A DNA stretch of 42,396 nt from a virus (IMGVR_UViG_2861064056_000003); one strand, 5' to 3'. Numbered from the stretch's first letter, positions 21,418-34,356 are shown. Numbers and translations: made by a program. Notes: generated by a model from the sequence alone, not told the origin.

Positions 21418-22089
21418 TTATACGCAAACGTCGTCTAAATGGTTCTGATAATGATGCAAAGTTGCAAGAAGTGCCACTTCATCAAGTGCTCTCACCGCCT
21501 CTTTCATTCCTACCCAGTGCAGGGAGTATGTTTCGCACCAGGTGGAACGAGAAACCGACAGCATTCCTGCTAGGGTAGATCCGGCCATCTCCTTAAAATC
21601 CTCGCGTTTATTTGCTGCTGCGACCGCCTGCACGGACAACCACACCAACGAAAGCAGGCGCTTAACTACTTTTCTCTGAGTTGACGCGGGGATGTTTCCT
21701 TTATAGCGACTCCAGACAGCCTCACAAATAGCTGTTTGGTGTTTGAATGCCAGGTTACCACCGTAGCAATAACGCAACCACGCTTGCTGACTTGCATCCA
21801 GCGAGTTCACAGAACGCCGCCAGGATGAATCAGCAAATTCAAAATCACTCATCGGCGGCGCGGGGCGACGTCTGCTGAAACTTTCCAGAGCGTAAACTGG
21901 CGTAACCAGAGCATCAACGGTCCGGTCCTCCAGCTGCACACGGTGAATATGTTTGCGTGGGTATGCGTTTTTGTCTGCCGGTGGGTGCTCACACAATGCT
22001 TCCAGTTGCCCCTTAGAACCACCAGACAAATCCCGCAATGCAGCGCGCAGTTTTATGCGGGTATATTCCAATAAATACTCGTTACTCAT
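21418..22089 (-). CDS. Late-gene antitermination protein Q-like
   Basis: 223 aa, Cys-containing, immediately upstream of the late promoter and lysis genes and after the YbcO-like gene. Confidence 0.5.
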   Translation of the reverse strand: MSNEYLLEYTRIKLRAALRDLSGGSKGQLEALCEHPPADKNAYPRKHIHRVQLEDRTVDALVTPVYALESFSRRRPAPPMSDFEFADSSWRRSVNSLDASQQAWLRYCYGGNLAFKHQTAICEAVWSRYKGNIPASTQRKVVKRLLSLVWLSVQAVAAANKREDFKEMAGSTLAGMLSVSRSTWCETYSLHWVGMKEAVRALDEVALLATLHHYQNHLDDVCV

Positions 22090-22382
22090 CAGATAAACTC
22101 CTCATCGCGCCAGATAGCCAGTGTTCTGAAAACTCCCTCAGCGTGCATCAACAACAATGAGTCGTGCTCGTAATCCGTTTTTGTACGTCCGTCGATGGCA
22201 TCGTGACACGCACTGCAGGCGATAGCGCCCTGCATATCGTGAGGTTTGATGGCTGTGCCGCACGTTCCGGCGAGACGATAATGAGCCAGTACGCTGGTTT
22301 CAGGATTGTGATTGCACACACCGGGGATACGCACAGTACAAGCGCGACTGCGTGCAGCTTTTCTCAGGTCGATTTTTTTCAT
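22089..22382 (-). CDS. YbcO-like protein (DUF1364, predicted nuclease of nin regions)
   Basis: RKAAR.R.C.VRIPGVCN.NPETSVLAH.RL.G.CGT..KP.D...AIACSACHD.ID.R matches recalled E. coli YbcO. Confidence 0.65.
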   Translation of the reverse strand: MKKIDLRKAARSRACTVRIPGVCNHNPETSVLAHYRLAGTCGTAIKPHDMQGAIACSACHDAIDGRTKTDYEHDSLLLMHAEGVFRTLAIWRDEEFI

Positions 22383-22975
22383 GATGTGTAATCCAGCAGC
22401 TGCGCGGCGGCATTTTCAGCGGCCTCCTGAGAGGCAAATGTGCGGAACAAAATATAATTCCACAGCACATCTAAAACGGCTGAATACAGTTGACCGAACT
22501 CAAGATCGTCCATCGCTGCAAACGAGATTGAACGAGGTACGCGCATCAAACTGCCGTCTGGCATCTGATGAACGTCATAAAACCCAGCTTCCATAATCGC
22601 CCATGCGCGAAACGCCTCGAACGACTTCACCGCACTGATACTCCCCGCGCGCTTTTCCGACTCATCGAGAAGATACTGATCAGCCAGCTCTGCCATGACA
22701 TCACCGTGTCCACCGTAATACGCCAGTAACTTAACGTAGCCGTGAACCAGTTCGCGCTCCGCAGGAGAAATAGCCCCTCCGGACGGATGCCAGTAATCAA
22801 AGCCCAGGTTGAGAAGTGAGAAAAATTTACGATGAAACGCGGGATTACGCGCCTGTTTGAAATCTGCATACACAACAGCACCTGGTTTGACTCGTTCAGT
22901 CAACCAGCGTTGCGTGTCTGGTGTCGCGGGTATTAGCGAACCGCCGGATACCCTGATAAATGAATGCTGCGCCAT
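22379..22975 (-). CDS. nin-region protein (DUF1367/YbcN-like)
   Basis: 198 aa directly upstream of the YbcO-like gene with overlapping start; family assignment from memory. Confidence 0.4.
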   Translation of the reverse strand: MAQHSFIRVSGGSLIPATPDTQRWLTERVKPGAVVYADFKQARNPAFHRKFFSLLNLGFDYWHPSGGAISPAERELVHGYVKLLAYYGGHGDVMAELADQYLLDESEKRAGSISAVKSFEAFRAWAIMEAGFYDVHQMPDGSLMRVPRSISFAAMDDLEFGQLYSAVLDVLWNYILFRTFASQEAAENAAAQLLDYTS

Positions 22976-23052
22976 GGTTAACTCCAGGTGGCGCGGCAGT
23001 GTTCAGAAAATGGTGCCGGGTGTTCAATCCAGCACCGATATTATACCGTGTT

Positions 23053-23232
23053 TTACGCGTCAGGGGGTGTAATAGTATATCCAGCTATTTCTGCCAACTC
23101 GAGAAACGCCATCAGGCTGGCAATCCGCTCATCATCGGTCAGAACACGCACACCAACGATGTGTCCGTCCTTACGCTTGATAACAGCCCGGCATGTTTCC
23201 GGTAGTTCGCCTATAGATTCTTGAATATTCAT
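23053..23232 (-). CDS. Small protein (59 aa) downstream of a LexA-box promoter
   Basis: ATG at 23232 preceded by a G-rich RBS; track start at 23253 is TTG and sits inside the LexA box. Confidence 0.4.
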   Translation of the reverse strand: MNIQESIGELPETCRAVIKRKDGHIVGVRVLTDDERIASLMAFLELAEIAGYTITPPDA

Positions 23233-23254
23233 GTCTTCCCCCCAATGCCACAAC

Positions 23255-23270
23255 CTGTATATTTATACAG
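23255..23270. promoter_or_regulatory. LexA (SOS) box CTGTATATTTATACAG
   Basis: Fits CTGT-N8-ACAG with AT-rich spacer; 16/20 match to the recalled consensus taCTGTatatatatACAGta. Confidence 0.6.
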
Positions 23271-23289
23271 TATTTTATGGCATTTGTCA
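23262..23289 (-). promoter_or_regulatory. Sigma70-like promoter overlapping the LexA box
   Basis: Minus strand TGACAA -35, 16-bp spacer, TATAAA -10 lying inside the LexA box. Confidence 0.45.
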
Positions 23290-23383
23290 TAACGCCAAAT
23301 ACAATGAGGGAATAATGAACAATTATATTCACGTCGTGAATTTTATTAAACGGTTTTATAGGGGATTAAACCGTTTATGGTCA

Positions 23384-24025
23384 TTATTTATCACTCCTGT
23401 AAATTGGAATTAACCATTTTCTAATCGTCGACGCTGCAGGTGGGTCAGAGTATTTCGCCACAAAAATACCGGATATGTATTGCACGCCACGCGATAATGG
23501 CGCTGTCGGGTTTTCAGTAAAAAAACGATCAGCCAGTTCAATGGCTTCGCTTTTTAATCTGTGCTGTGGTCGTCCTCCGCCCTTTGTTCCCAGGTATCGC
23601 GCCAGTTGTTTGAAACGGTAGGCGATGATTAACGGTCGCATCATCATATTGAAAAAATCGCGGGCATCGTTGTCAGCGCCTTGCGCTATCAACAGTGCAA
23701 AAAACAGATACGGGATTATGTACACTTCAGGAGATATACGAACCCGTTCACAAGTTGGTGGAGCCAACTCAATAAGTAAGTCAGCCAGCGGATTCCCCTT
23801 TTCTCCACGTTTGTAATAGCGATACAGCGGCCCGATATCAAGTTCACTCACGTCGATTTCAGGATGCCCGGCAACGACTGTACGTATCTCTTCTGCCAGA
23901 GCGTCAAATATTGCCCCGGTCCGTTCAAGATAGAGCCTCCGGGTCGAACCGCGATCATCCAACGCCCGTAACATATCTAACCGGCTAACGAAAGTTTCAG
24001 GCCAGTCCTCATAGAAGGTTTTCAT
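23384..24025 (-). CDS. Hypothetical protein (~213 aa), no recognised family
   Basis: ORF track; start taken at MKTFYEDW with a weak GAGGT RBS; divergent from 24269..24502. Confidence 0.45.
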   Translation of the reverse strand: MKTFYEDWPETFVSRLDMLRALDDRGSTRRLYLERTGAIFDALAEEIRTVVAGHPEIDVSELDIGPLYRYYKRGEKGNPLADLLIELAPPTCERVRISPEVYIIPYLFFALLIAQGADNDARDFFNMMMRPLIIAYRFKQLARYLGTKGGGRPQHRLKSEAIELADRFFTENPTAPLSRGVQYISGIFVAKYSDPPAASTIRKWLIPIYRSDK

Positions 24026-24268
24026 AATTACCTCGAATAATAAAAACTGCACTATTTGCACAATTTATTATTCGTTTTCACGCCGCTGAGTTCTATAAAA
24101 AAGAAAAAACCTCCGAGGCAGGGTTTTGTTATGGCTCGTTAAATCATCATCCAACTTTTTAGACTGAACGGTGATACTTGCAAATATTTGAAAATATGGG
24201 CTGGAACCCTATCTTATGATGTGCCTGGTAATTTATATTGTTGGGTCTTTATATCATGAGGAATCACT

Positions 24269-24502
24269 ATGGGTACGTTAGGCAACCAGCCGTGCAGAAG
24301 TCGTTATGAGTTCGATGATTTTAATTTAGCCAATCGAGCTGCGGCTCTTACTAAGTTAGCAAAAGAAACTGGTGTATCGGTGGATACCTTAATCAAACTT
24401 GAAATTGCTATGCAACTGAATCGGCTCAACTCCATCCTTATCGAAAACGGTGACAAGATGGACGAGAATCTGGCAGGTATTGGCGAGATACTGCAGAAGT
24501 GA
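24269..24502 (+). CDS. Small protein with probable helix-turn-helix
   Basis: 77 aa; RBS GAGGAA; LAKETGVSVDTLIKLE resembles an HTH; followed by a hairpin. Confidence 0.4.
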   Translation: MGTLGNQPCRSRYEFDDFNLANRAAALTKLAKETGVSVDTLIKLEIAMQLNRLNSILIENGDKMDENLAGIGEILQK

Positions 24503-24508
24503 GAGTAG

Positions 24509-24524
24509 CCCCTCTTCTGAGGGG
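24509..24524 (+). terminator. Hairpin CCCCTC-TTCT-GAGGGG after the 77-aa gene
   Basis: Perfect 6-bp stem directly 3' of the stop codon; short U-tract. Confidence 0.35.
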
Positions 24525-24801
24525 TTGCACATTTAAAATATTAAGGGCGGTCTTCTTCACGTACACAGTCACCTGGTCGAATCGTTCACGCATACTGAGT
24601 ACAAAAAATCTCAACGATAAGATCAGGTTAGACCTGTATTTTCCAGAAACATATAGACGCCTAAAAAAACACTAAACTCATGATTATCATGTATGTTTTT
24701 ACTGGAAACATTGAACCATCCACAATACAGCGTAAAAAGCAAGCAATTCACAAGATTTTAAAGTGATTTATCTGGAAGACTTTACTACTAACAGTTAATA
24801 T

Positions 24802-24846
24802 CGTACCAGAAGTGCAGAATTTGCACTTTTACAGGAATGTGGTACG
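24802..24846. promoter_or_regulatory. Nested dyad symmetry upstream of the ImmA-like gene
   Basis: Outer CGTACCA...TGGTACG and inner GTGCA-gaatt-TGCAC inverted repeats 55-100 bp upstream of the ATG at 24901. Confidence 0.4.
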
Positions 24847-24900
24847 GAACATGCTGTCTATATTTCAACCAATAATCGTAATGCAGTAACTGGAGGAGCT

Positions 24901-25389
24901 ATGGCTACCAACCCAAGAGAGCACGCCCGGCGAGTGCTGGACACGTTCTGGTGCGGGCGTGGTTTCCCTGTTGATCCAGCGAAAATTGCTCACGACATGG
25001 GATTAGATGTTTTTATTACCGATCTTCCTGGGAAAGTTTCTGGCGCACTGATTAAACAAAAAGATCAAGATCCAGCGATCTTTCTAAACAGTGATGACAA
25101 CAAAGTTCGTCAACGTTTTTCATGTGGGCATGAGTTGGGGCATTACATCGCCCGGCAAGCATCGCATAGCGATGAATATGAGTACGTTGATTTACGTGGC
25201 GAAACCGCAAGCGCCGGAACGCATCCTGATGAAATTTTTGCAAACAAGTTCGCAGCAGAACTTCTGATGCCGGTAGATGAGGTCAGAAAACTGCACGCTG
25301 ACGGTCAACCAAGTTATATAATGGCGCATTATTTTGGCGTATCTGACGATGCGATGACTTATCGTTTAAAGAACTTGAGGTTGGGGTAA
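24901..25389 (+). CDS. ImmA/IrrE-family zinc metallopeptidase (M78-type)
   Basis: RQRFSCGHELGHY signature (HEXXH after RxRF); strong RBS GGAGGAG; 162 aa. Confidence 0.7.
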   Translation: MATNPREHARRVLDTFWCGRGFPVDPAKIAHDMGLDVFITDLPGKVSGALIKQKDQDPAIFLNSDDNKVRQRFSCGHELGHYIARQASHSDEYEYVDLRGETASAGTHPDEIFANKFAAELLMPVDEVRKLHADGQPSYIMAHYFGVSDDAMTYRLKNLRLG

Positions 25390-25398
25390 CGCTTTAAA

Positions 25399-25914
25399 AT
25401 GCCATCGGATGACGATTTTAACAGCCGTTTCAAACAGGAAGTAGCACGCAGACTGAAGGATTCCCTCAACCTACACCGTCAGTTAGCAGAAGAGGTTGAG
25501 CCGGAGGACGATGAAACTCCGGTTCAGTCTCCTGACGAAGCTTCACCTCAGCCAAAGGTTTCGCACGCCCCCAAAAAAACGGCTGTCCGTATTCGCGGAA
25601 TAGCCAGAAAAAGAGCTGCCGAAGCTCGCAAAATGGCTGTAGCTGCGTCTAGCAAAAGAATTCCAACTGCTACACCCTCTCAACAAGTCACCCGTACTGA
25701 GAGTAAAATCTTGACCGAGTTCACATCTGTGAAACAGGTGAATTCACTTGATACCGAGCATGAGCGCAAACAACTCAACAACAAAGATTTTGAAGCAGAA
25801 ATCGCTCTAAAAAAACGATACGGGAAATGGTTCCTGATTATCCTTGCTTTCCAACTTCTGATAATGAATGGTGTATTTATTGCCGACGGCGCAGGTAAGC
25901 TGGAATTTGGGTGA
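25399..25914 (+). CDS. Charged protein with C-terminal TM segment, 3' end interrupted by IS1
   Basis: Start 10 nt after the ImmA-like stop; stop codon supplied by the IS1 end; frame continues in 26686..26780 once IS1 and one TSD copy are removed. Confidence 0.5.
   Translation: MPSDDDFNSRFKQEVARRLKDSLNLHRQLAEEVEPEDDETPVQSPDEASPQPKVSHAPKKTAVRIRGIARKRAAEARKMAVAASSKRIPTATPSQQVTRTESKILTEFTSVKQVNSLDTEHERKQLNNKDFEAEIALKKRYGKWFLIILAFQLLIMNGVFIADGAGKLEFG
25902..25909. repeat. Target-site duplication GGAATTTG, left copy
   Basis: Identical 8-mer immediately flanks both IS1 ends. Confidence 0.75.
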
Positions 25915-25964
25915 TGCTGCCAACTTACTGATTTAGTGTATGATGGTGTTTTTGAGGTGCTCCA

Positions 25965-26240
25965 GTGGCTTCTGTTTCTATCAGCTGTCCCTCCTGTTCA
26001 GCTACTGACGGGGTGGTGCGTAACGGCAAAAGCACCGCCGGACATCAGCGCTATCTCTGCTCTCACTGCCGTAAAACATGGCAACTGCAGTTCACTTACA
26101 CCGCTTCTCAACCCGGTACGCACCAGAAAATCATTGATATGGCCATGAATGGCGTTGGATGCCGGGCAACCGCCCGCATTATGGGCGTTGGCCTCAACAC
26201 GATTTTACGTCACTTAAAAAACTCAGGCCGCAGTCGGTAA
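25965..26240 (+). CDS. insA: IS1 InsA
   Basis: 91 aa [42 protein letters not shown]..., the IS1 InsA sequence. Confidence 0.9.
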
Positions 26241-26662
26241 CCTCGCGCATACAGCCGGGCAGTGATGTGATTGTCTGCGCTGAAATGGACGAACAGTGGG
26301 GCTACGTCGGTGCTAAATCACGTCAGCGCTGGCTGTTTTACGCGTATGACAGGATACGGAGGACGGTTGTGGCGCACGTCTTCGGTGAACGCACTCTGGC
26401 CACACTGGAGCGTCTTCTGAGCCTGCTGTCGGCCTTTGAGGTCGTGGTATGGATGACGGATGGCTGGCCGCTGTATGAATCCCGCCTGAAGGGAAAGCTG
26501 CACGTAATCAGCAAGCGTTACACTCAGCGAATTGAGCGGCATAACCTGAATCTGAGACAACATCTGGCAAGGCTGGGACGGAAGTCACTGTCGTTCTCAA
26601 AATCGGTGGAGCTGCATGACAAGGTCATCGGGCATTATCTGAACATAAAACACTATCAGTAA
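26159..26662 (+). CDS. insB: IS1 InsB (made as InsAB' by frameshift)
   Basis: 167 aa ORF with the IS1 InsB sequence (..[28 protein letters not shown]..). Confidence 0.85.
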
Positions 26663-26677
26663 GTTGGAGTCATTACC

Positions 26678-26685
26678 GGAATTTG
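26678..26685. repeat. Target-site duplication GGAATTTG, right copy
   Basis: Matches 25902..25909. Confidence 0.75.
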
Positions 26686-26708
26686 AGGATTTAACACTAC
26701 AGTTGTAC

Positions 26709-26780
26709 ATGGGCGGTACTTTGACAGAGGTATTCGGCCTCGTGCTGGTCGTGACAAAATACCTTTTTAAACGCAAGTAA
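26709..26780 (+). repeat. Copy 1 of a ~75-bp direct repeat encoding MGGTLTEVFGLVLVVTKYLFKRK
   Basis: ~92% identical to 30132..30203; here in frame with the IS1-interrupted gene 25399.. Confidence 0.6.
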
Positions 26781-27027
26781 CTCTCTCGGTCCAACAGTCT
26801 TTCGAAGGCCCTGATCAAAGGGCCTTGATAAATTAGCAGTGCGTTGAAAACAGATAGTTATTCCCATCAGTTCCAACGTAATACACATCAAAAAAATCAC
26901 CATTCTTTTGCTCTAACGTCAACACCTACCCTTAAAAAAATAATTCTCCAAGAATGAGAAAGTTATTGTGTGTATTAGATAAGATATGAGCTGACACATC
27001 TATGGCGTGGAGCCAAATTTAATATGA

Positions 27028-27059
27028 CAGTCCGCTCTGTGCCATAAGCGGACTGTCAA
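27028..27059 (-). terminator. Hairpin GACAGTCCGC-N12-GCGGACTGTC downstream of the low-GC gene
   Basis: Perfect 10-bp inverted repeat; A/T-rich on the minus-strand 3' side. Confidence 0.4.
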
Positions 27060-27242
27060 TAAACAGATTCACTTGTAAATCTTGAAGCTATACATATTTA
27101 CTTTCAATGATAAATAAAAGAACTATCCAAAAATCACTGAGAGCATATTTTAACTAACCCTCCGCTACTATTAACATAAATTTCACCCAACCATAATTAA
27201 ATTGATACATATAGCAACTTACCTTGATACGAATCATCTGGG

Positions 27243-27941
27243 TTATATTTTTCCATATTTTTTTCCGTCAAATCGAATCATGCCAGGATCAAGAAAATTA
27301 ATTAAATCGATTAACGCGTGCTGTATTCTGATTAGCCTTTCTTTATAAATTCCGATATCTCTTGTCATATTTATCACTTCATTGTTTAAATCTAAAAAAA
27401 ATGGCTCATTGATAAAGCAATTTTCCTTTGTGAAACTGCCGTAACCTATGCAATCAAATCCAGTATCTGTTGATATCAGCATCTTTTCTGCAATAGCTCT
27501 CTGCTCTCCTATGAAAAACATAAAATACTGACCAAAGACGTCTGTTTGGATTAATGAGTTAATATTGTTCTGTAATCTAATAAACTCCCTCATTTTTTTA
27601 TTTTTTTCTAGGCTAAGGTATTGAATGTCTATGCGGGCAGCTTCTGTCCATGCAAAAAACTGGGAAAAAAGAAAAACAGTATTGTTGATAACATAATCTT
27701 GTTGGCGCTTATTCCCATTATGATAAAACTCTTCAATGAACCCCAATTCTAATATATTATAAATACGGCTTTGTAAGTCTGAAGCTGAGCGAATTAACGG
27801 TTCAATATAGTACTGATGTTTTCTCCTTACATCCAGTGATTCATTGAGCTTGTTTATTCTATTCTGATTATAAGTAGATATAGCAATAGAGATTATAGCT
27901 ATTGCACCACTAATAAAGCTTGAAATTAATGCCGTACCCAT
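27243..27941 (-). CDS. Hypothetical membrane-anchored protein (232 aa), low GC, no recognised family
   Basis: N-terminal hydrophobic segment (ALISSFISGAIAIISIAI); RBS AAGGA; AT-rich codon usage unlike the rest of the prophage. Confidence 0.55.
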   Translation of the reverse strand: MGTALISSFISGAIAIISIAISTYNQNRINKLNESLDVRRKHQYYIEPLIRSASDLQSRIYNILELGFIEEFYHNGNKRQQDYVINNTVFLFSQFFAWTEAARIDIQYLSLEKNKKMREFIRLQNNINSLIQTDVFGQYFMFFIGEQRAIAEKMLISTDTGFDCIGYGSFTKENCFINEPFFLDLNNEVINMTRDIGIYKERLIRIQHALIDLINFLDPGMIRFDGKKYGKI

Positions 27942-28504
27942 CTAAAAGTCCTTTGATTCTTGCTTGGTTAACAAAATGACATAATTTTATTTAATGCCAT
28001 AACAACTTAACAATATATCATAATATGATTATTATGGTGTAGCTTGTCGCATCTACGCTCCATTACAAACAGATGTAAGATATAACCTATATGTTTTAGC
28101 CAGCAAATTCGAAAGCATTCAAAGTAGTCTCATCGAACTCTCGAAACCCTATGTCTTCGGGTATAAAATATTTAAATCCATTTGCATAATATCGACTCAT
28201 GTTTATTATATTCTCCCCATTCACCATTAAGATTTGACATTATTTTCAACAATCGGTTATTGCAAGATTGAAATATATTTTTACTTGACACAATATTCCA
28301 TGTAGCCCAGCGATTCGACTTACCCCCAACTATACGGACAATCTAAATTAAATCGATGATTTTTTGATACATTCTCCTCTCTCCATTACTTTATGTTTTT
28401 GTTCCCCAAAAATACCTTGCTCTCTAAAAAATAATTGTTCTTTAAGTTCAAAATCGAGATCTACATGAGCGTTAGATACAAAGCTAATATGTTGAAATGT
28501 CTTT

Positions 28505-28513
28505 CCCCCCCCC
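28505..28513. repeat. C9 homopolymer (G9 on the minus strand) in AT-rich ORF-free DNA
   Basis: Read directly; on the minus strand the tract follows an ATG opening a 55-codon ORF (28348..28515). Confidence 0.8.
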
Positions 28514-29129
28514 ATAACGGCATTGTTATCTAAACTATGTTACACAAATATAATATTACCCTTTCAACGTAATCCAAGAATAAGATTAATGCCATTATAT
28601 ATATCATAAATATGATATTTTGTATATTTTTATCATTTAGCCTTGATTGTACTAGGTGTACTCTCAACGAAGTAGGGAAAGTCTGTTCCTCGCTCACAGC
28701 TGCCCTTCAGTAAGCGAAAAAATGCCTACTCGGTGCCATATACAGCCATTGTTATTAACAGCAGGGAATAATTCAAAACTGAAATTAAATATCTACCTTT
28801 TACAGTAGAAATAGTTCCTCCAGGACACTATCCATTGCCGGGCACAATCACTCGGGGTATAACGATATAAAATATGTTCATGATAGTGCAGGTTCGTATA
28901 TTAAGTTCAGCAGCGAAAACATGCCTTACAGGTTTCCGGTTTTGGGAGCGTCGTTACAGGATCCTGCGCATACCGTTCCCATCTGTTGAATTAAAGGTTT
29001 CACAGCCTTTGCCGATATCACCTTTTACCTTACCTGTGATGCGTTCAGTGCTCAGCGTTGTTTACTGTAGCTCTCGGGACTGATTACAGACCGCGTCTTA
29101 AAAACCAATCCTTACTCTAAAGGGAATTC

Positions 29130-30053
29130 ATGAGATTAAAATACTCAGTACTCTTACTCGCCATTGCCCTTACAGGCTGTGATAACAAAAAAGATGAGAT
29201 CGGTTGTTCTTCGGAAATAACCCAGTCAGCTCTCATGGATTTATTAAAAAAATCTGCTTATGAAGGACTCTCTGAACAGGTCGATAAATACCCTGATGTC
29301 ACTAATCAGACCAAACGAAGCACACTGGACAAGATCAAACTAGCCATCTCTGAGATCTCCACAACATCAAGTGACACGGGCAGCACAATGAAAACTTGTG
29401 AAGGGACCGTGACGATGACTCTATCTGCGAACGAGTACGTCCAGCTTTCAGATGCTTACAGAAAGAATTTTAATCGTAATCTCGATAAGCAAATGGAAAG
29501 CCTGTTTTTGGAGAACAACGCAAACGCCTTTTCAAAACGTATCACCTACACCGTGCAGGCGACCGACGATCAGAAAAACGTTTTTGTAAAAACCTCTACT
29601 GATAATCCGATATCAGTGGGCGCCGCTTTACTGACATCGCTTTCCATTATCACCCCGATCGTTGAGCAGCAGAAAATCCAGCAGGCTAAGGATGCCCAAC
29701 AGAGTCAAATTGAAGCGGAACAACAGGTGCAACTCAGGGCGCAAGAACAGGCTAAGTATGAGGCGGAGAAGCAAATAGAGAGACAGGCACAACTTCAGCC
29801 GCAAAAAGCTGACAACCTTGATCAGTCCCGAATGGCATTTGCGAATGCCGACTCTGATTTGAGTACCGTCTGGAGCAAGTTAACCCCGGCGAAGAAAAAA
29901 GATTTGCTGCCTTCTCAGCGTCAGTGGATCAAAACTAAGGATGCTATGTGCGGTAAAGTTTCAATGCAGGGAACAGATGCTGAAGTCAAGAAAATGGTCG
30001 ACTGCCAGACGCAAATGACCCTTTCAAGAATCGCTTTCCTCAGAAACCAATAA
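29130..30053 (+). CDS. Lipoprotein with C-terminal DUF1311-like domain (LprI-type lysozyme inhibitor family)
   Basis: Lipobox LTGC after a signal peptide; Q-rich coiled region; C-terminal ..W.KL....K..L...Q..WIK..D..C.. pattern; RBS AAGGGA. Confidence 0.6.
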   Translation: MRLKYSVLLLAIALTGCDNKKDEIGCSSEITQSALMDLLKKSAYEGLSEQVDKYPDVTNQTKRSTLDKIKLAISEISTTSSDTGSTMKTCEGTVTMTLSANEYVQLSDAYRKNFNRNLDKQMESLFLENNANAFSKRITYTVQATDDQKNVFVKTSTDNPISVGAALLTSLSIITPIVEQQKIQQAKDAQQSQIEAEQQVQLRAQEQAKYEAEKQIERQAQLQPQKADNLDQSRMAFANADSDLSTVWSKLTPAKKKDLLPSQRQWIKTKDAMCGKVSMQGTDAEVKKMVDCQTQMTLSRIAFLRNQ

Positions 30054-30067
30054 CTGAAGTCTCCTTC

Positions 30068-30101
30068 AAGCTGGCGCCAGGTGTTAACCTGGTGCCAGCT
30101 T
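30068..30101 (+). terminator. Long imperfect hairpin after the lipoprotein gene
   Basis: AAGCTGGCGCCAGG-tgttaa-CCTGGTGCCAGCTT, 14-bp stem with one mismatch; no clear U-tract. Confidence 0.35.
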
Positions 30102-30131
30102 AGTCATCAAGTGCATATGTAACTGTTTTAT

Positions 30132-30203
30132 ATGGGCGGTACTTTGACAGAGGTATTCGGTCTCGTGCTGGTCGTGGTCAAATACCTTTTTAAGCGCAAA
30201 TAG
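30132..30203 (+). repeat. Copy 2 of the ~75-bp direct repeat; free-standing 23-codon ORF MGGTLTEVFGLVLVVVKYLFKRK
   Basis: ~92% identical to 26709..26780; no upstream RBS. Confidence 0.6.
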
Positions 30204-30227
30204 AGTATTTCCGCCCCAAACAACCTG

Positions 30228-31046
30228 TCAAAATGCTGAATTAGCAACGGATATAGCCGACTTTTTCCCCATTACCATCAATTTATCCAGTGTCATACTT
30301 CGCAGATTGTCGCTGTGGATCACCAGATACCCTGCCCGCTCAGCGATCTCTTTGAAAGCGTCAAAGGTCATCAGATGTTCGCCTTTGGCAACATGGCGCA
30401 TCCCGGTCACTTTTCCATTTTTGATAGTGGTGATAAAAGAAAAATCTGGAATGGTTGGGTGATTTTCATCGAGTAGCAGGCAGTGGATGTATTCAATCGC
30501 CTCTAACATTTGCGTCTGTGACAGTTGTTCTATGTGAGAGACGGCGAAGCGTTGATGAATCATGGTGTAGGCATCGGGATACATCATGCCTTTCTTGCCG
30601 ACCAGTATATTAACGGCATCACGCAAGGGAGTACGGTCATCGGTAGTTGTACTCCGCCTCTCTGGACGCTGGCTAAAATAACAATCTTCCAGCTTTTCGA
30701 AAACTTCCCAGGCCTGTTCTGTTTCCAGCATTTTGGCATGGCGAGCTGCGCCGCGTTCTGTCCAGAGAATGAGGGATCGGGTATGTTTAGCAACTGACTG
30801 ACTATCTGTCAGTCTGTTTTTGAAGTCGCGTAATTCATTACCTTCCAGCTTAAAAAAATGCTTTCCTACGACAAATCTGGCGATGTTGCGCTTGAAGTTT
30901 TGCTGGATACCATTTACTTCCGTGCCATACAAACTGGCAAGCAATTCAGTAGTGATGACGGGAAGTTGGTTATGATGTAGCGGAGAAAGGGATTCCGCAG
31001 ATATTTGGACTGTCATCGCAGTGGCCTCACTTAGTGTTTTTTTCAT
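30228..31046 (-). CDS. Putative phage antirepressor (Ant-like, KilA-N/ORF6N-type N-terminus)
   Basis: 272 aa; N-terminal region resembles antirepressor DNA-binding domains (memory-based); start taken at ATG 31046. Confidence 0.45.
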   Translation of the reverse strand: MKKTLSEATAMTVQISAESLSPLHHNQLPVITTELLASLYGTEVNGIQQNFKRNIARFVVGKHFFKLEGNELRDFKNRLTDSQSVAKHTRSLILWTERGAARHAKMLETEQAWEVFEKLEDCYFSQRPERRSTTTDDRTPLRDAVNILVGKKGMMYPDAYTMIHQRFAVSHIEQLSQTQMLEAIEYIHCLLLDENHPTIPDFSFITTIKNGKVTGMRHVAKGEHLMTFDAFKEIAERAGYLVIHSDNLRSMTLDKLMVMGKKSAISVANSAF

Positions 31047-31077
31047 CACCACCAGCGACGCCAATCATCTGGTGGTG
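31047..31077 (-). promoter_or_regulatory. RNA hairpin abutting the ant start codon
   Basis: Perfect 9-bp inverted repeat CACCACCAG-N13-CTGGTGGTG; on the mRNA the 3' arm ends directly at the AUG and covers the SD-like GGUGGUG. Confidence 0.4.
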
Positions 31078-31177
31078 AGCTGTGCAGGGTTGGCGTAACC
31101 GGCTAAGTGAACCCGGCGCTTCCACAGAAGCCCCCACACAGCCCACCATAATGCGAATGTGGCCGTGCCTAACACAT

Positions 31178-31197
31178 AAAAAAACCGCTAACGCGGC
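31178..31197 (-). terminator. Weak terminator between the nin genes and ant
   Basis: Minus strand CCGCGTTAGCGG hairpin followed by TTTTTTT. Confidence 0.3.
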
Positions 31198-31288
31198 TAT
31201 GCGTCACTTAGATATCCGGGACGCCAATCCCGGCAACCGATTTTGCGGCTGCGCGGAAACTATAGCCCCGGACTTTTTCTAAGTCAAT

Positions 31289-31510
31289 TCAATCAACTTC
31301 AAACCTCCGGTGTTCACATTCCATACACTCAACGGGAACATCATCGCGATGCAAGTCCACATATCCGACCCGCTTATACAACTCAATAATGTCCGGTAAC
31401 GTGACCAGATGTTTTTCCGGTTCCAACACCTCAGCCCGGGTTACTTTGTAATCTGAAATATAGAGCACTATCCGCCCGTTCCGTGGTAACTCCAGTTTAT
31501 CGCCAAACAT
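31289..31510 (-). CDS. Hypothetical nin-region protein
   Basis: 73 aa ORF in the minus-strand early operon. Confidence 0.35.
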   Translation of the reverse strand: MFGDKLELPRNGRIVLYISDYKVTRAEVLEPEKHLVTLPDIIELYKRVGYVDLHRDDVPVECMECEHRRFEVD

Positions 31511-31697
31511 GTCCTTTCCCTCCGGGAAACCAATGATATTGACGATATTACACCCACAACGATTCGTTTTACGTCACTCCGCAATCACCATACATCCGTA
31601 CCAATCCGTACATTCCCACCACAAAAACGATATTTGACAGGCACTGGTAATAGATTTTTAACGCGTGCTATTGCCTTGCGACGTATTTTCAATTCAC

Positions 31698-31922
31698 TCA
31701 TACAGCCTCCCTGCTCTCAAACGGACGAATATTGGTTGGTTCTCCACACGGAATAGCCCAACCCAGCCAGGTAAATATTTTCAGGTCACACATCGCGTCA
31801 TACCGTTCGCCAGGATTCACATCCACCATGCTGCAGGCAATTTCATATTGTTCACCATTATCAGTCAGTGCGATCTGGTCATTAATAAACCGGGGCACAA
31901 ATGCAAGAAAAAGTTCTTTCAT
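31698..31922 (-). CDS. Hypothetical nin-region protein
   Basis: 74 aa ORF; start overlaps the upstream gene's stop. Confidence 0.35.
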   Translation of the reverse strand: MKELFLAFVPRFINDQIALTDNGEQYEIACSMVDVNPGERYDAMCDLKIFTWLGWAIPCGEPTNIRPFESREAV

Positions 31923-32230
31923 GAAATTCTCCGCTCAAAATAAACAAACTGATTCACCGCTCCGATCGGCATTTCGAGTTTTTCTGCGATATCCTGGCGA
32001 TTAATACCCGACTGATGTAATTCCCTTGCCAGCTCGATATCTTCCTGGAGGTATTTCACTGACTGGTGATAATTACCCCGCAGATACATACAGATTTTCA
32101 GCTCGCGCGCTTTTGTGCGTACCGCTGCACCGGTTCTGCCAATAAGCTGCCCTATACGTTCAACTGTCATGCTGCCCGCACATTGTTTGATGATTACGAC
32201 TTCCGCACGCACCCACCGTTTGTATTTCAT
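31919..32230 (-). CDS. Hypothetical DNA-binding protein (possible HTH)
   Basis: 103 aa; QSGINRQDIAEKLEMPIGAVNQFV looks like an HTH; coupled to neighbours. Confidence 0.35.
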   Translation of the reverse strand: MKYKRWVRAEVVIIKQCAGSMTVERIGQLIGRTGAAVRTKARELKICMYLRGNYHQSVKYLQEDIELARELHQSGINRQDIAEKLEMPIGAVNQFVYFERRIS

Positions 32231-32463
32231 TGTTCCATCACCCCTCTCCAGTAGTTCAGACGCTCTCTGAAAAATTCCCGGTACGTATCTGGCGTCATTC
32301 CGATTTGCTCAATCACGCTTCCCCTCGGAATACGTTTCTCAAAGAGTTGGCGGATCAGCGCCGCCGCTCGCATGTCGTAGTGCTCTTTAAGCTGGTATTC
32401 CTGGGGCCATTTGGCGCGGTTGTGTGGTAAGCCGGGCGGCAGGTAATCTGATTGCCCGGCCAT
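32227..32463 (-). CDS. Hypothetical nin-region protein
   Basis: 78 aa ORF with 4-bp overlaps to both neighbours. Confidence 0.35.
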   Translation of the reverse strand: MAGQSDYLPPGLPHNRAKWPQEYQLKEHYDMRAAALIRQLFEKRIPRGSVIEQIGMTPDTYREFFRERLNYWRGVMEQ

Positions 32464-32464
32464 A

Positions 32465-32875
32465 TCACGCCCCTTTCTTTGCTATCGGAGTGATGGAACT
32501 CAGCAGCAGGCGGCAGCGACCAGGCGCGCCAATGCGCTGCCCGGTTATCTTGTCGTAAGTTTCATGCGGTGAGGCACACCAGGTTGTCGCTGTTTCGTGG
32601 AGTTTCACTTGCCGCTCACCATTTCTGCGAATCGCGATCCCGGTGTGCGTTTTGCCCTTACGTTTCACTGCTGGCGCTGCGGCTACGGATGCCTGACGGG
32701 CAGGCTTAGCAGGGGTTGAAAAATTGCCTGCTTTAGGTCTTGGCACAAAAACCGCGCGAGTGCGCGCACGTGGCCCGACGTTCATATTCCACAAAATGAC
32801 GTCGAGATAGTTTTTACCGTCGTCTATGTGTCCTTTGTCCGACGGGTACTCTAATTTGCCTGGAGTGGTGGTCAT
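32465..32875 (-). CDS. Hypothetical protein downstream of the helicase
   Basis: 136 aa; ATG preceded by the conserved CCGAGGAAAGACCA motif. Confidence 0.35.
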   Translation of the reverse strand: MTTTPGKLEYPSDKGHIDDGKNYLDVILWNMNVGPRARTRAVFVPRPKAGNFSTPAKPARQASVAAAPAVKRKGKTHTGIAIRRNGERQVKLHETATTWCASPHETYDKITGQRIGAPGRCRLLLSSITPIAKKGA

Positions 32876-32896
32876 TGGTCTTTCCTCGGTTATTTC

Positions 32897-32910
32897 ACGC
32901 TGGTCAGGCG
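32897..32910 (-). repeat. Intercistronic motif CGCCTGACCAGCG, copy A
   Basis: Directly after the helicase stop and before CCGAGGAAAGACCA-ATG; near-identical copies at 35321..35333 and 37326..37338. Confidence 0.6.
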
Positions 32911-32913
32911 TGG

Positions 32914-34356
32914 TTAAAATTCATTTGTGCGAGAATTATCGCTACGGGAATAACGTTTATTTTTTTCTGAGCGGTCGTTGGTAAGGCGATAAACCTCCTC
33001 ATCGCTGATATCAATAACTGAGCCATTTTTCATCAGGGCATAGGCTGTTCCCGATGGTCCTTCGCGGTTCAGACGTAGCAACATTTCCATGAGATTTGGG
33101 TCGGCATTTTCGTTATAAACAGCATCACGATAGAGGCCAATCCAGACATCGCAATCTTGTTCGATCTGCCCGGTATCTTTACTGTCGCTCGGGTTAGGCC
33201 GCTTATCGGCACGTTCTTCAAGCTTTCGGTTGAGTTGCGTCAGCAGGACCACAACACAATCCAGCTCTTTTGCCAGGTTCTTCAAACCGGTTGTGATATC
33301 GCCATACGCAATATCCCTACGCTCTGCCGATTCGGTCTTCATCAGCGTCAAATAGTCAATTGCCACCAGGCCAACCGAGCCACGCATCCGTTTAACTTTT
33401 CGACATTCAGCGACAATATGCGCAAGGGTTACACCTGCCGTGCTGTCAATCATCATGTTGGATTCGGCAATCTCCCCCGCCTTTGCTATTGCGAGACTCA
33501 ATTCAGATTCATCGTTAGGGCCAAGATAAAAAATCTCCGAATTGACCTTTGCTTCCTGCGCAACCATGCGTTCAATGAGACTTCTGTCAGTCATTTCCAG
33601 GCTAAATACCAGCGTCGGCAAACGATGATTCAGAGCAAAATGCACCGCAATTTTATTAAACGCGGCTGTCTTGCCCATTTTTGGCCGGGCACCAATAACG
33701 ACCAATGAACCTCTTAACGCCTGCTTTGGTGCCATTAAGCGATCAAGGCTTTCGATTCCGAGCGTTAGTCCGGCTGCATGTGCTGGATCATTGAAACGGC
33801 GCTCAAGGTCATCTATCCAGTCATCGACGACTTCACTTGCCGGACGCAAACCGCCCTTATGCCCGGTACGGGAATGTTCGGCCACCTGCCCAATCACTTG
33901 CTGAACGGCGGTGATCCTGTCAGTAGCAGTCATATCTGCAGGCTGGATCATAATCTCCAGACAAGAATTCAACTTTTCCACGGCATAACGAAGAATGGCT
34001 TTTTCACGTACAATTTTCGCGTAGTTGACCATTGAGGCCGGAATCGCCGCCTTACTCATTTCAGCCAGGTATGCGAATCCCCCCACGCGCTCATACAGCC
34101 CCTTCGATTCCATCAGTTCGGTCAGTGTTATCAGGTCAGTTGGTTTATCAGCTTGAAATAATCCTTTGATCTCCCGGTAGATAACCTGATGCGCATTGAT
34201 ATAAAACGTTTCCGGTTTCAGTAACGCAAATACCGCATTGGTTCTGTCGTGGTCGGTATTCAGCATCAGACAGCCCAGAACAGCCTGTTCTGCGTCAACG
34301 CTGTACAGTGCAATCGCGTTATTTATCATTTGCGCGTTCTTCCTTGACCGAAACAT
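32914..34356 (-). CDS. Replicative DNA helicase, DnaB family (P22 gene 12-like)
   Basis: AEQAVLGCLML, Walker A GARPKMGKT, LNRKLEERADKRPNPSDSKDTGQIEQD..YRD.VYNEN match recalled E. coli DnaB. Confidence 0.85.
   Translation of the reverse strand: MFRSRKNAQMINNAIALYSVDAEQAVLGCLMLNTDHDRTNAVFALLKPETFYINAHQVIYREIKGLFQADKPTDLITLTELMESKGLYERVGGFAYLAEMSKAAIPASMVNYAKIVREKAILRYAVEKLNSCLEIMIQPADMTATDRITAVQQVIGQVAEHSRTGHKGGLRPASEVVDDWIDDLERRFNDPAHAAGLTLGIESLDRLMAPKQALRGSLVVIGARPKMGKTAAFNKIAVHFALNHRLPTLVFSLEMTDRSLIERMVAQEAKVNSEIFYLGPNDESELSLAIAKAGEIAESNMMIDSTAGVTLAHIVAECRKVKRMRGSVGLVAIDYLTLMKTESAERRDIAYGDITTGLKNLAKELDCVVVLLTQLNRKLEERADKRPNPSDSKDTGQIEQDCDVWIGLYRDAVYNENADPNLMEMLLRLNREGPSGTAYALMKNGSVIDISDEEVYRLTNDRSEKNKRYSRSDNSRTNEF

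Follow-up and report, generated by a model that had tools for sequence, protein, structure and literature searches.

A decayed nuclease-like gene and ordinary gene flanks make up most of a conspicuously empty, AT-rich prophage region that carries a polymorphic G/C tract

What is the 1.2-kb stretch at positions 27942–29129 of the viral sequence IMGVR_UViG_2861064056_000003, which reads as AT-rich DNA devoid of genes and carries a run of nine C residues beside an ATG? The whole stretch of DNA that was analysed (42,396 nt, hereafter the window) is a lambdoid prophage with genes for a Q antiterminator, a DnaB-type helicase and ImmA/IrrE, and it is present at an identity of at least 99% in 413 of 5,426 complete E. 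coli genomes, many of them labelled ST131. The GC content of the region is 35.7% (31.9% in its part 27942–28700), as compared with 48.2% for the whole window. The original prediction, made from the sequence alone, held that no ORF of 60 codons or more with a plausible start lies here, and raised the possibility of phase-variable expression or of a regulatory RNA. Annotators indeed leave the region empty, and RefSeq shows 27942–29129 without any annotated feature across hundreds of E. coli genomes. However, on the plus strand at 28874–29083 there is one ORF above 60 codons, which starts with ATG and encodes 69 aa; by inspection it has no Shine–Dalgarno (SD) sequence, it has no match in PHROGs, and it has never been annotated. 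The ORF-free look of the region results from gene decay and from ordinary 5' flanks: the region is mostly a decayed small nuclease-like gene together with the flanks of ordinary genes, and not a special non-coding element.

The 1.2 kb do not form one unit, as they travel in two parts. Positions 27942–28700 co-travel with an intact 232-aa gene for a membrane protein that adjoins them on the minus strand at 27243–27941 (hereafter ORF1), and positions 28729–29129 co-travel with the gene of an LprI-family lipoprotein. The first part was found again together with ORF1, at about 81% identity, in P2-EC58 (AJ512683) and in the GDAR2-2 prophage (P2-like, Z/fun hotspot). The second part is present together with the LprI-family gene, and without the ORF1 module, in other prophages (RM10042-type), in which the homology begins at 28729. 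When phage collections were searched by near and distant DNA searches and by a protein search, P2-EC58 was the sole match.

The first part contains a dead gene. In a sister locus (L009), in which ORF1 has 85% identity, two small called ORFs lie upstream of ORF1 and are protein-level homologs of the minus-strand fragments of the window. Fused, they give 150 aa, and this sequence matches 1,551 proteins of about 150 aa at 58–87% identity with full coverage. In a tblastn search against the minus strand of the window, an intact relative (P0121) was aligned over its residues 7–152 (E 1.7e-20). The corresponding relic, at 28096–28515 on the minus strand, is co-oriented with ORF1, lies upstream of it and holds ORF fragments of 55, 39 and 43 aa. 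The second short ORF that had been pointed out earlier (34 codons, 28096–28200, minus strand) is present as well, being an internal-ATG form of the 43-aa ORF at 28096–28227. The relic bears deletions of 2, 11, 26, 1, 2 and 1 nt, all of them frame-breaking, and stops occur in every frame. Its catalytic residues are lost, as FDL is changed to FNL (D to N) and VECK to VGGK (E of ExK to G).

The intact relatives to which the relic was compared (proteins P0121–P0240, loci L015–L026, with P0121, P0125 and P0129 as representatives) are about 60% identical across Gamma- and Betaproteobacteria. They share 44 invariant residues, of which the relic has kept 19 and L009 all 44, and the motif HRFDLGC...VECKSHRWT, in which D60, E71 and K73 are invariant. 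Sequence searches against Pfam and NCBIfam gave no match, and neither did a search of PDB with a family profile. The AF2 model of an intact relative (pLDDT 86) has an alpha-beta-beta-beta-alpha-beta core (H-E-E-E-H-E order), and the top Foldseek matches of this model were all PD-(D/E)xK proteins, albeit weak ones (best E 8e-3). As both the motif and the core typical of the PD-(D/E)xK superfamily are found, the intact relatives are, judging by the model, members of this superfamily with a predicted nuclease fold. They occur as solo cargo in unrelated contexts, namely in an island with a Cap4 nuclease and UvrD in E. coli TA054, in a cassette-like array in Vibrio and in an island in Yersinia; these contexts are defence island-like and cassette array-like. 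In L009, L010 and L011, which come from three independent assemblies and have 44/44 of the invariant residues, a single 1-nt deletion beside an A-run (at about 3559–3580) splits the gene; the deletion would mark either an inactivation that took place very recently or, possibly, a site of recoding.

All six deletions of the relic are common to P2-EC58, and thus the gene was dead before the cassettes of the window and of P2-EC58 diverged; the P2-type copies carry additional indels beyond the six shared ones. Mismatches between the window and P2-EC58 were distributed evenly over the three codon positions of the relic (29/27/30, p 0.93), which was not the case in the controls, ORF1 in the same comparison (16/6/20, p 0.024) and intact L015 compared with L009 (12/12/26, p 0.02). 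The identity to P2-EC58 was 94.0% in ORF1 (27243–27941, 0 gap columns), 83.6% in the spacer between ORF1 and the relic (27942–28095, 2 gap columns), 78.9% in the relic body (28096–28515, 9 gap columns), and 88.0% in the 5' flank of the relic (28516–28700, 1 gap column). The difference between ORF1 and the relic was highly significant (Fisher p 1e-13). Clearly, the relic has what characterizes a pseudogene: full-length homology to intact genes, frame-disrupting lesions, and the loss of purifying selection.

The living cargo gene of the cassette is ORF1. Its product has a hydrophobic N-terminus, is named a 'lysogenic protein' and matches phrog_5606 (E 7e-163). The gene is annotated in P2-EC58 and GDAR2-2, and 290 homologs were found, in a widespread and uncharacterised family that ranges from Enterobacterales to Acidobacteriota and Cyanobacteria. 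No Pfam domain was found in ORF1, and PADLOC gave a weak match to RTasTM (RT-associated TM protein; E 1.8e-5). This match led us to consider whether a reverse transcriptase had decayed here, which was rejected, since the relic is that of a ~150-aa nuclease-fold gene. With its location in known phage cargo hotspots, ORF1 is a candidate single-gene exclusion or defence protein. It does not need the upstream nuclease-like gene, because none of 80 distant, species-representative loci of the ORF1 family (0/80) has this small gene within 3 kb of ORF1, and because homologs of ORF1 at 59–71% identity have upstream spacers of only 177–350 nt. A conserved two-gene system consisting of the nuclease-like gene and ORF1 was rejected on the same count of 0/80 loci with a partner, and on the occurrence of the intact small genes in unrelated contexts.

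The 5' region of ORF1 (27942–28095, minus strand), which is at the same time the 3' flank of the relic, has AAGGA as an SD-like sequence some 8 nt ahead of the ATG, and one promoter-like site (28013 to 27984; not above chance). A palindrome, ATCATA-A-TATGAT, lies upstream of ORF1 at 28017–28029, and a second AT-rich palindrome that resembles it, ATATCATA-AA-TATGATAT, lies upstream of the relic at 28601–28618. Both palindromes adjoin TTAATGCCAT; they are present with changes in P2-EC58 and are missing from L009 and Yersinia. They could be shared operator/promoter elements, or could have arisen by chance in AT-rich DNA. Downstream of ORF1, a minus-strand hairpin with a perfect 13-bp stem and a T-rich tail (27025–27058) is likely the terminator of ORF1. 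It was the sole strong terminator in the scan, and it lies inside a stretch homologous to the 'left inverted repeat' of P2-EC58.

On the other side of the relic, the DNA at 28516–28700 (minus strand) is the dead gene's own promoter/leader region, as shown by its homology to the DNA that precedes intact members of the family; the conserved blocks are common to L009, Yersinia (L021), E. coli TA054 (L018), and L015. The homology to P2-EC58 ends at about 28700, where the 'right inverted repeat' of P2-EC58 begins and which marks the cassette boundary. The 5' flank is better conserved than the body of the relic (88% versus 79%, Fisher p 0.008), which hints at some remaining constraint. Compatible with this conservation, the retained flank may still promote transcription toward ORF1.

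The junction DNA that connects the ORF1 cassette with the lipoprotein module (28701–28900) had no detectable relatives outside this prophage group. In 4 of 445 matching genomes, the 1,188-nt region is split by IS1, indicating that it is dispensable. The insertion was mapped in one of the four (20AR0479, L108), in which it is located within the junction DNA, at 28796–28805. Together with the IS1 copy of the window itself, at 25910, this means that IS1 struck the accessory block at least twice independently. The remainder (28901–29129, plus strand) is the native 5' flank of the LprI-family gene, with 83% identity to the DNA upstream of its ortholog in ~110-kb Klebsiella IncFIB plasmids; for the gene and the flank together, the identity to the Klebsiella plasmids is 87% over 1170 nt. 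The gene (29130–30053, plus strand) encodes a 307-aa LprI-family (lysozyme-inhibitor-like) lipoprotein (Pfam LprI, E 4e-7; RefSeq; phrog_5094) and is the second cargo gene of the locus. We also considered whether 28701–29129 could be another relic, and rejected this: tblastx and blastn gave no evidence of it in the fetched loci, and only the last ~229 nt are conserved, as a flank.

The ORF1 cassette and the LprI-family gene form a 3.4-kb block of cargo, which is accessory and is edged by an 81-nt direct repeat (89% identity). The left copy (26699–26779, plus strand) is the genuine 3' end of a prophage gene that encodes 201 aa, and the right copy (30122–30202, plus strand) is a relic with the same C-terminal peptide (..YMGGTLTEVFGLVLVV.KYLFKRK, followed by a stop). 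The pair looks like the scar of a recombinational exchange of cargo. In RM10042, a GIY-YIG nuclease module occupies the place that the ORF1 cassette has in the window. The 201-aa gene is broken in the window by IS1 (25910–26677, 768 nt, with a target duplication of about 8–9 bp) and is intact in SK1144; over the 11 kb compared (22000–33000), the window and SK1144 are identical save for this insertion. An ORF6N-domain protein encoded beside the cargo (30228–31064, minus strand) matches the PADLOC candidate family PDC-S05 (E 1e-9).

The homopolymer that drew attention to the region lies within the relic. The C9 tract is located at 28505–28513, as had been claimed, and is the sole C/G run of at least nine in the window; on the minus strand it is a G9 run in codons 2–4 of the relic. 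It directly follows an ATG (ATG GGG GGG GGA AAG) and opens a 55-codon ORF (28348–28515, minus strand), and the remark that this ORF has no clear SD was borne out too, as none precedes its ATG. Taken alone, the run is only mildly unusual, since 10 of 100 dinucleotide shuffles contained a C9 run and 0.12 such runs are expected per window. A run of this type is missing from P2-EC58, GDAR2-2, L009, and intact L015. In P2-EC58 and GDAR2-2, CATCTCCCC replaces C9, and the minus strand reads ATG GGG AGA TGA, with a stop at codon 4. L009 reads ATG GGA AAG and has a good SD, AAGGAG, that the copy in the window is without, and homologs that are intact or nearly so have (ATG GAG TTT ATT CTG) ATG GGA AAG. 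As the outgroups (the P2-type copies and L009) are without the run, the tract is a derived state, acquired by a gene that was dead by then.

The length of the ORF that is opened depends on the tract: it is 54–56 codons with C6, C9 or C12, 17 codons with C8, and 9–10 codons with C7 or C10. The 55-codon frame is thus retained only with C6, C9 or C12, and of the main alleles C8 is out of frame. The 55-aa product of this frame matches phrog_7353 end to end (55 positions, 'unknown function', E 3e-43), which was the sole match of the small ORFs when they were searched against PHROGs, Pfam and PADLOC. Of the intact ~150-aa proteins, the profile of phrog_7353 covers only the N-terminal ~50 residues. 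Apparently, phrog_7353 is the N-terminal stump of this dead gene, built from truncated pseudogene calls.

Slipped-strand variation of the tract had been anticipated, with a comparison of isolates proposed as a check, and the tract length does differ between isolates, from C7 to C10. The indel sits inside the run, and copies that are otherwise identical carry C7, C8, C9 or C10. Among the 408 E. coli genomes with the surrounding 70-mer, 195 have C9, 185 have C8, and 28 have other lengths. The median chromosome size is 5.18 Mb in the carriers of C8 and 5.03 Mb in those of C9 (p 5e-7). Because chromosome size differs by allele, C8 and C9 are heritable and lineage-structured, and result neither from random error nor from a rapid flip-flop. 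The C8/C9 alleles are largely lineage-structured and look clonally inherited, and this polymorphism could serve as a lineage marker. Differences were also seen within series of related isolates: isolate 4/4 has C9, and isolates 4/0 and 4/1-1 have C8; Z135-2 has C9, and C10 was read in Z135-7 and deduced for Z135-1 from its 1189-nt span. Such differences among related isolates could be due to slippage or to long-read error, and the latter, acting on the homopolymer, could also account in place of slippage for C7, for C10 and for the cases in which near-identical isolates differ.

We consider it very probable that the region holds a fossil gene, the homopolymer of which slips neutrally, with ordinary 5' regions around it. 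Its history is probably as follows. In a mobile cargo cassette, a small nuclease-like gene of PD-(D/E)xK type, together with the 5' flank that belongs to it, preceded ORF1; the cassette is found in the Z/fun hotspot of P2-like phages and, in the window, in the accessory locus that a lambdoid prophage carries in ST131-type E. coli. The nuclease-like gene was inactivated before the two copies diverged and has drifted neutrally since, with ORF1 under purifying selection. In the lineage of the window, substitutions in the first codons of the dead gene would have given rise to the G9 run. With no selection on the frame, the run would slip by one or two bases in replication, so that C8 and C9 arise as heritable alleles and C7 and C10 as rare ones. 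The rest of the 1.2 kb comprises the former promoter/leader of the dead gene, the flank 5' of the LprI-family gene, and the junction DNA between the two. The slippage of the tract is real but toggles a fossil; it is without evident consequence, and we infer that it is selectively neutral. If there are residual roles, they might be the driving of ORF1 by the old promoter, or the translation of the 55-aa stump.

The proposed phase-variable expression finds no support in these results, as the ORF behind the tract is what is left of the N-terminal part of a dead gene, the P2-type copies have TGA at codon 4, about half of the carriers have the out-of-frame C8, and the tract is missing from all other copies and from the intact homologs. 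A genuine contingency switch would operate if the G-tract set the translation of the 55-codon ORF as a leader, leading to a functional micro-protein or, where translation shields the transcript from termination by Rho, tuning the read-through from the old upstream promoter into ORF1. The tract stands right beside an ATG and varies in length, about half of the carriers being 'on' (C9) and half 'off' (C8), and related isolates differ in its length (4/4 versus 4/0 and 4/1-1; Z135-2 versus Z135-1 and Z135-7). The upstream flank is conserved above the relic body, the relic and ORF1 are co-oriented, and the terminator scan found no terminator-like site between them. Like contingency loci, the region has a run of at least about 8 in a 5' coding region, the length of which varies between isolates; however, no intact functional gene is switched, and the tract is not kept in related copies. 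Moreover, there is no SD before the ATG, while L009 has AAGGAG; both the tract and the ORF are missing from the P2-type copies of the same cassette; the stump is without coding constraint; and the alleles follow lineages and do not flip rapidly. An SD and a promoter-like site of its own precede ORF1, and most of its homologs have short upstream regions. On balance, a switch of this kind appears improbable.

A related idea is that of an incipient switch recruited from the dead gene. With C9, the stump would be translated, and a long leader starting from the fossil promoter (at ~28.6 kb) would be protected from premature termination, so that more ORF1 would be made, whereas the C8 lineages would express less. 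If this were true, a slip of one base would make a trait encoded by the prophage heritably different among ST131 sublineages. We regard it as highly unlikely. As for the TTGACA-like hexamers that had been pointed out in the region, promoter-like hexamer pairs are present (10) but are not enriched over the 11.8 ± 3.8 expected; the terminator scan, too, gave counts no higher than chance.

It is likewise very doubtful that the differences in tract length are artefacts of assembly or sequencing and that the tract in truth has a single length. Long-read assemblies are known to be prone to homopolymer indels, and C7 and C10 occur in series of near-identical genomes (Esc9 versus Esc11/15/18; the Z135 isolates), but random error would not produce C8 and C9 in near-equal numbers (185 versus 195) and tied to chromosome size. 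Least credible of all is a structured regulatory or effector RNA that would work with ORF1, by analogy with retron or DRT-type ncRNAs: ~750 nt co-travel with ORF1 in two phage types, and ORF1 has its PADLOC match to RTasTM, but homology at the protein level to a family of intact genes accounts for the DNA that co-travels, this DNA has indels and evenly spread substitutions along its whole length, annotation and a Pfam scan of the flanking ORFs revealed no reverse transcriptase gene near the locus, and distant ORF1 homologs are without the region. The regulatory RNA suggested at the outset gains nothing from the RNA searches either. An Rfam search of 26.5–30.5 kb at E ≤ 1 gave no match in 27942–29129 (two chance eukaryotic matches lie outside it), and the folding was no more stable than that of shuffled sequences (MFE z-score −0.15 for the minus strand of 27942–28700, and −0.35 for the plus strand of 28701–29129).

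With the decayed gene and its ordinary flanks as the preferred explanation, the conspicuous 'empty' AT-rich stretch of a widespread ST131 prophage is accounted for, and the outcome is mostly a clean-up. It also implies that the cassette of relic and ORF1 moved, already dead in its nuclease-like part, between P2-like and lambdoid phages. The living neighbours, that is ORF1 (phrog_5606), and the strongly conserved ~150-aa nuclease-fold family that occurs intact elsewhere are more promising targets than the tract.

Compared with known systems, the locus has counterparts at several levels. The intact relatives of the relic resemble XisH-like 2okf and other small PD-(D/E)xK proteins in the D...E-x-K motif (FDLG...VECK) and in the predicted core, whereas the copy in the window is without the catalytic D and E. 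The Z-region cassette of P2-EC58 (AJ512683, 'putative lysogenic protein' with inverted repeats) has the same ORF1 (94% nt identity), ~760 nt of upstream DNA and the six deletions. Its record annotates only ORF1, an RBS and predicted −10/−35 signals, and the relic is not recognised there. It differs from the window by CATCTCCCC in place of C9, by additional lesions, and by its host phage, which is P2-like and not lambdoid.

Poly-G/C contingency switches are known in surface or restriction–modification genes of Neisseria, Haemophilus and Campylobacter. As in these loci, a G/C run of nine stands right after a start codon in the window, and its length sets the frame and differs between isolates. 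In contrast to them, the frame belongs to a stump of 55 codons left from a dead gene, so that no functional output is switched; homologs do not share the tract, and inheritance of the alleles looks clonal.

A further comparison is with the pseudogenes of P2-like prophages. Of these prophages, 98% are reported to carry at least one pseudogene; most of the pseudogenes are small and intergenic, resemble genes without a known function, and are often located in defence loci (bioRxiv 10.64898/2026.02.27.708500). Like those remnants, the relic in the window is a decayed, unannotated fragment between cargo genes in a variable locus of a phage. Pseudogene remnants of this small, intergenic kind have already been reported to be very common in the accessory loci of P2, and the present case is one such, and an ordinary one. 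Unlike them, it was carried, already dead, between the P2-type Z/fun hotspot and a lambdoid prophage, and it gained a length-polymorphic G9 run. The move of a dead relic between phage types, the polymorphic run, and a stump that seeded a PHROG family are modest twists on a common theme.
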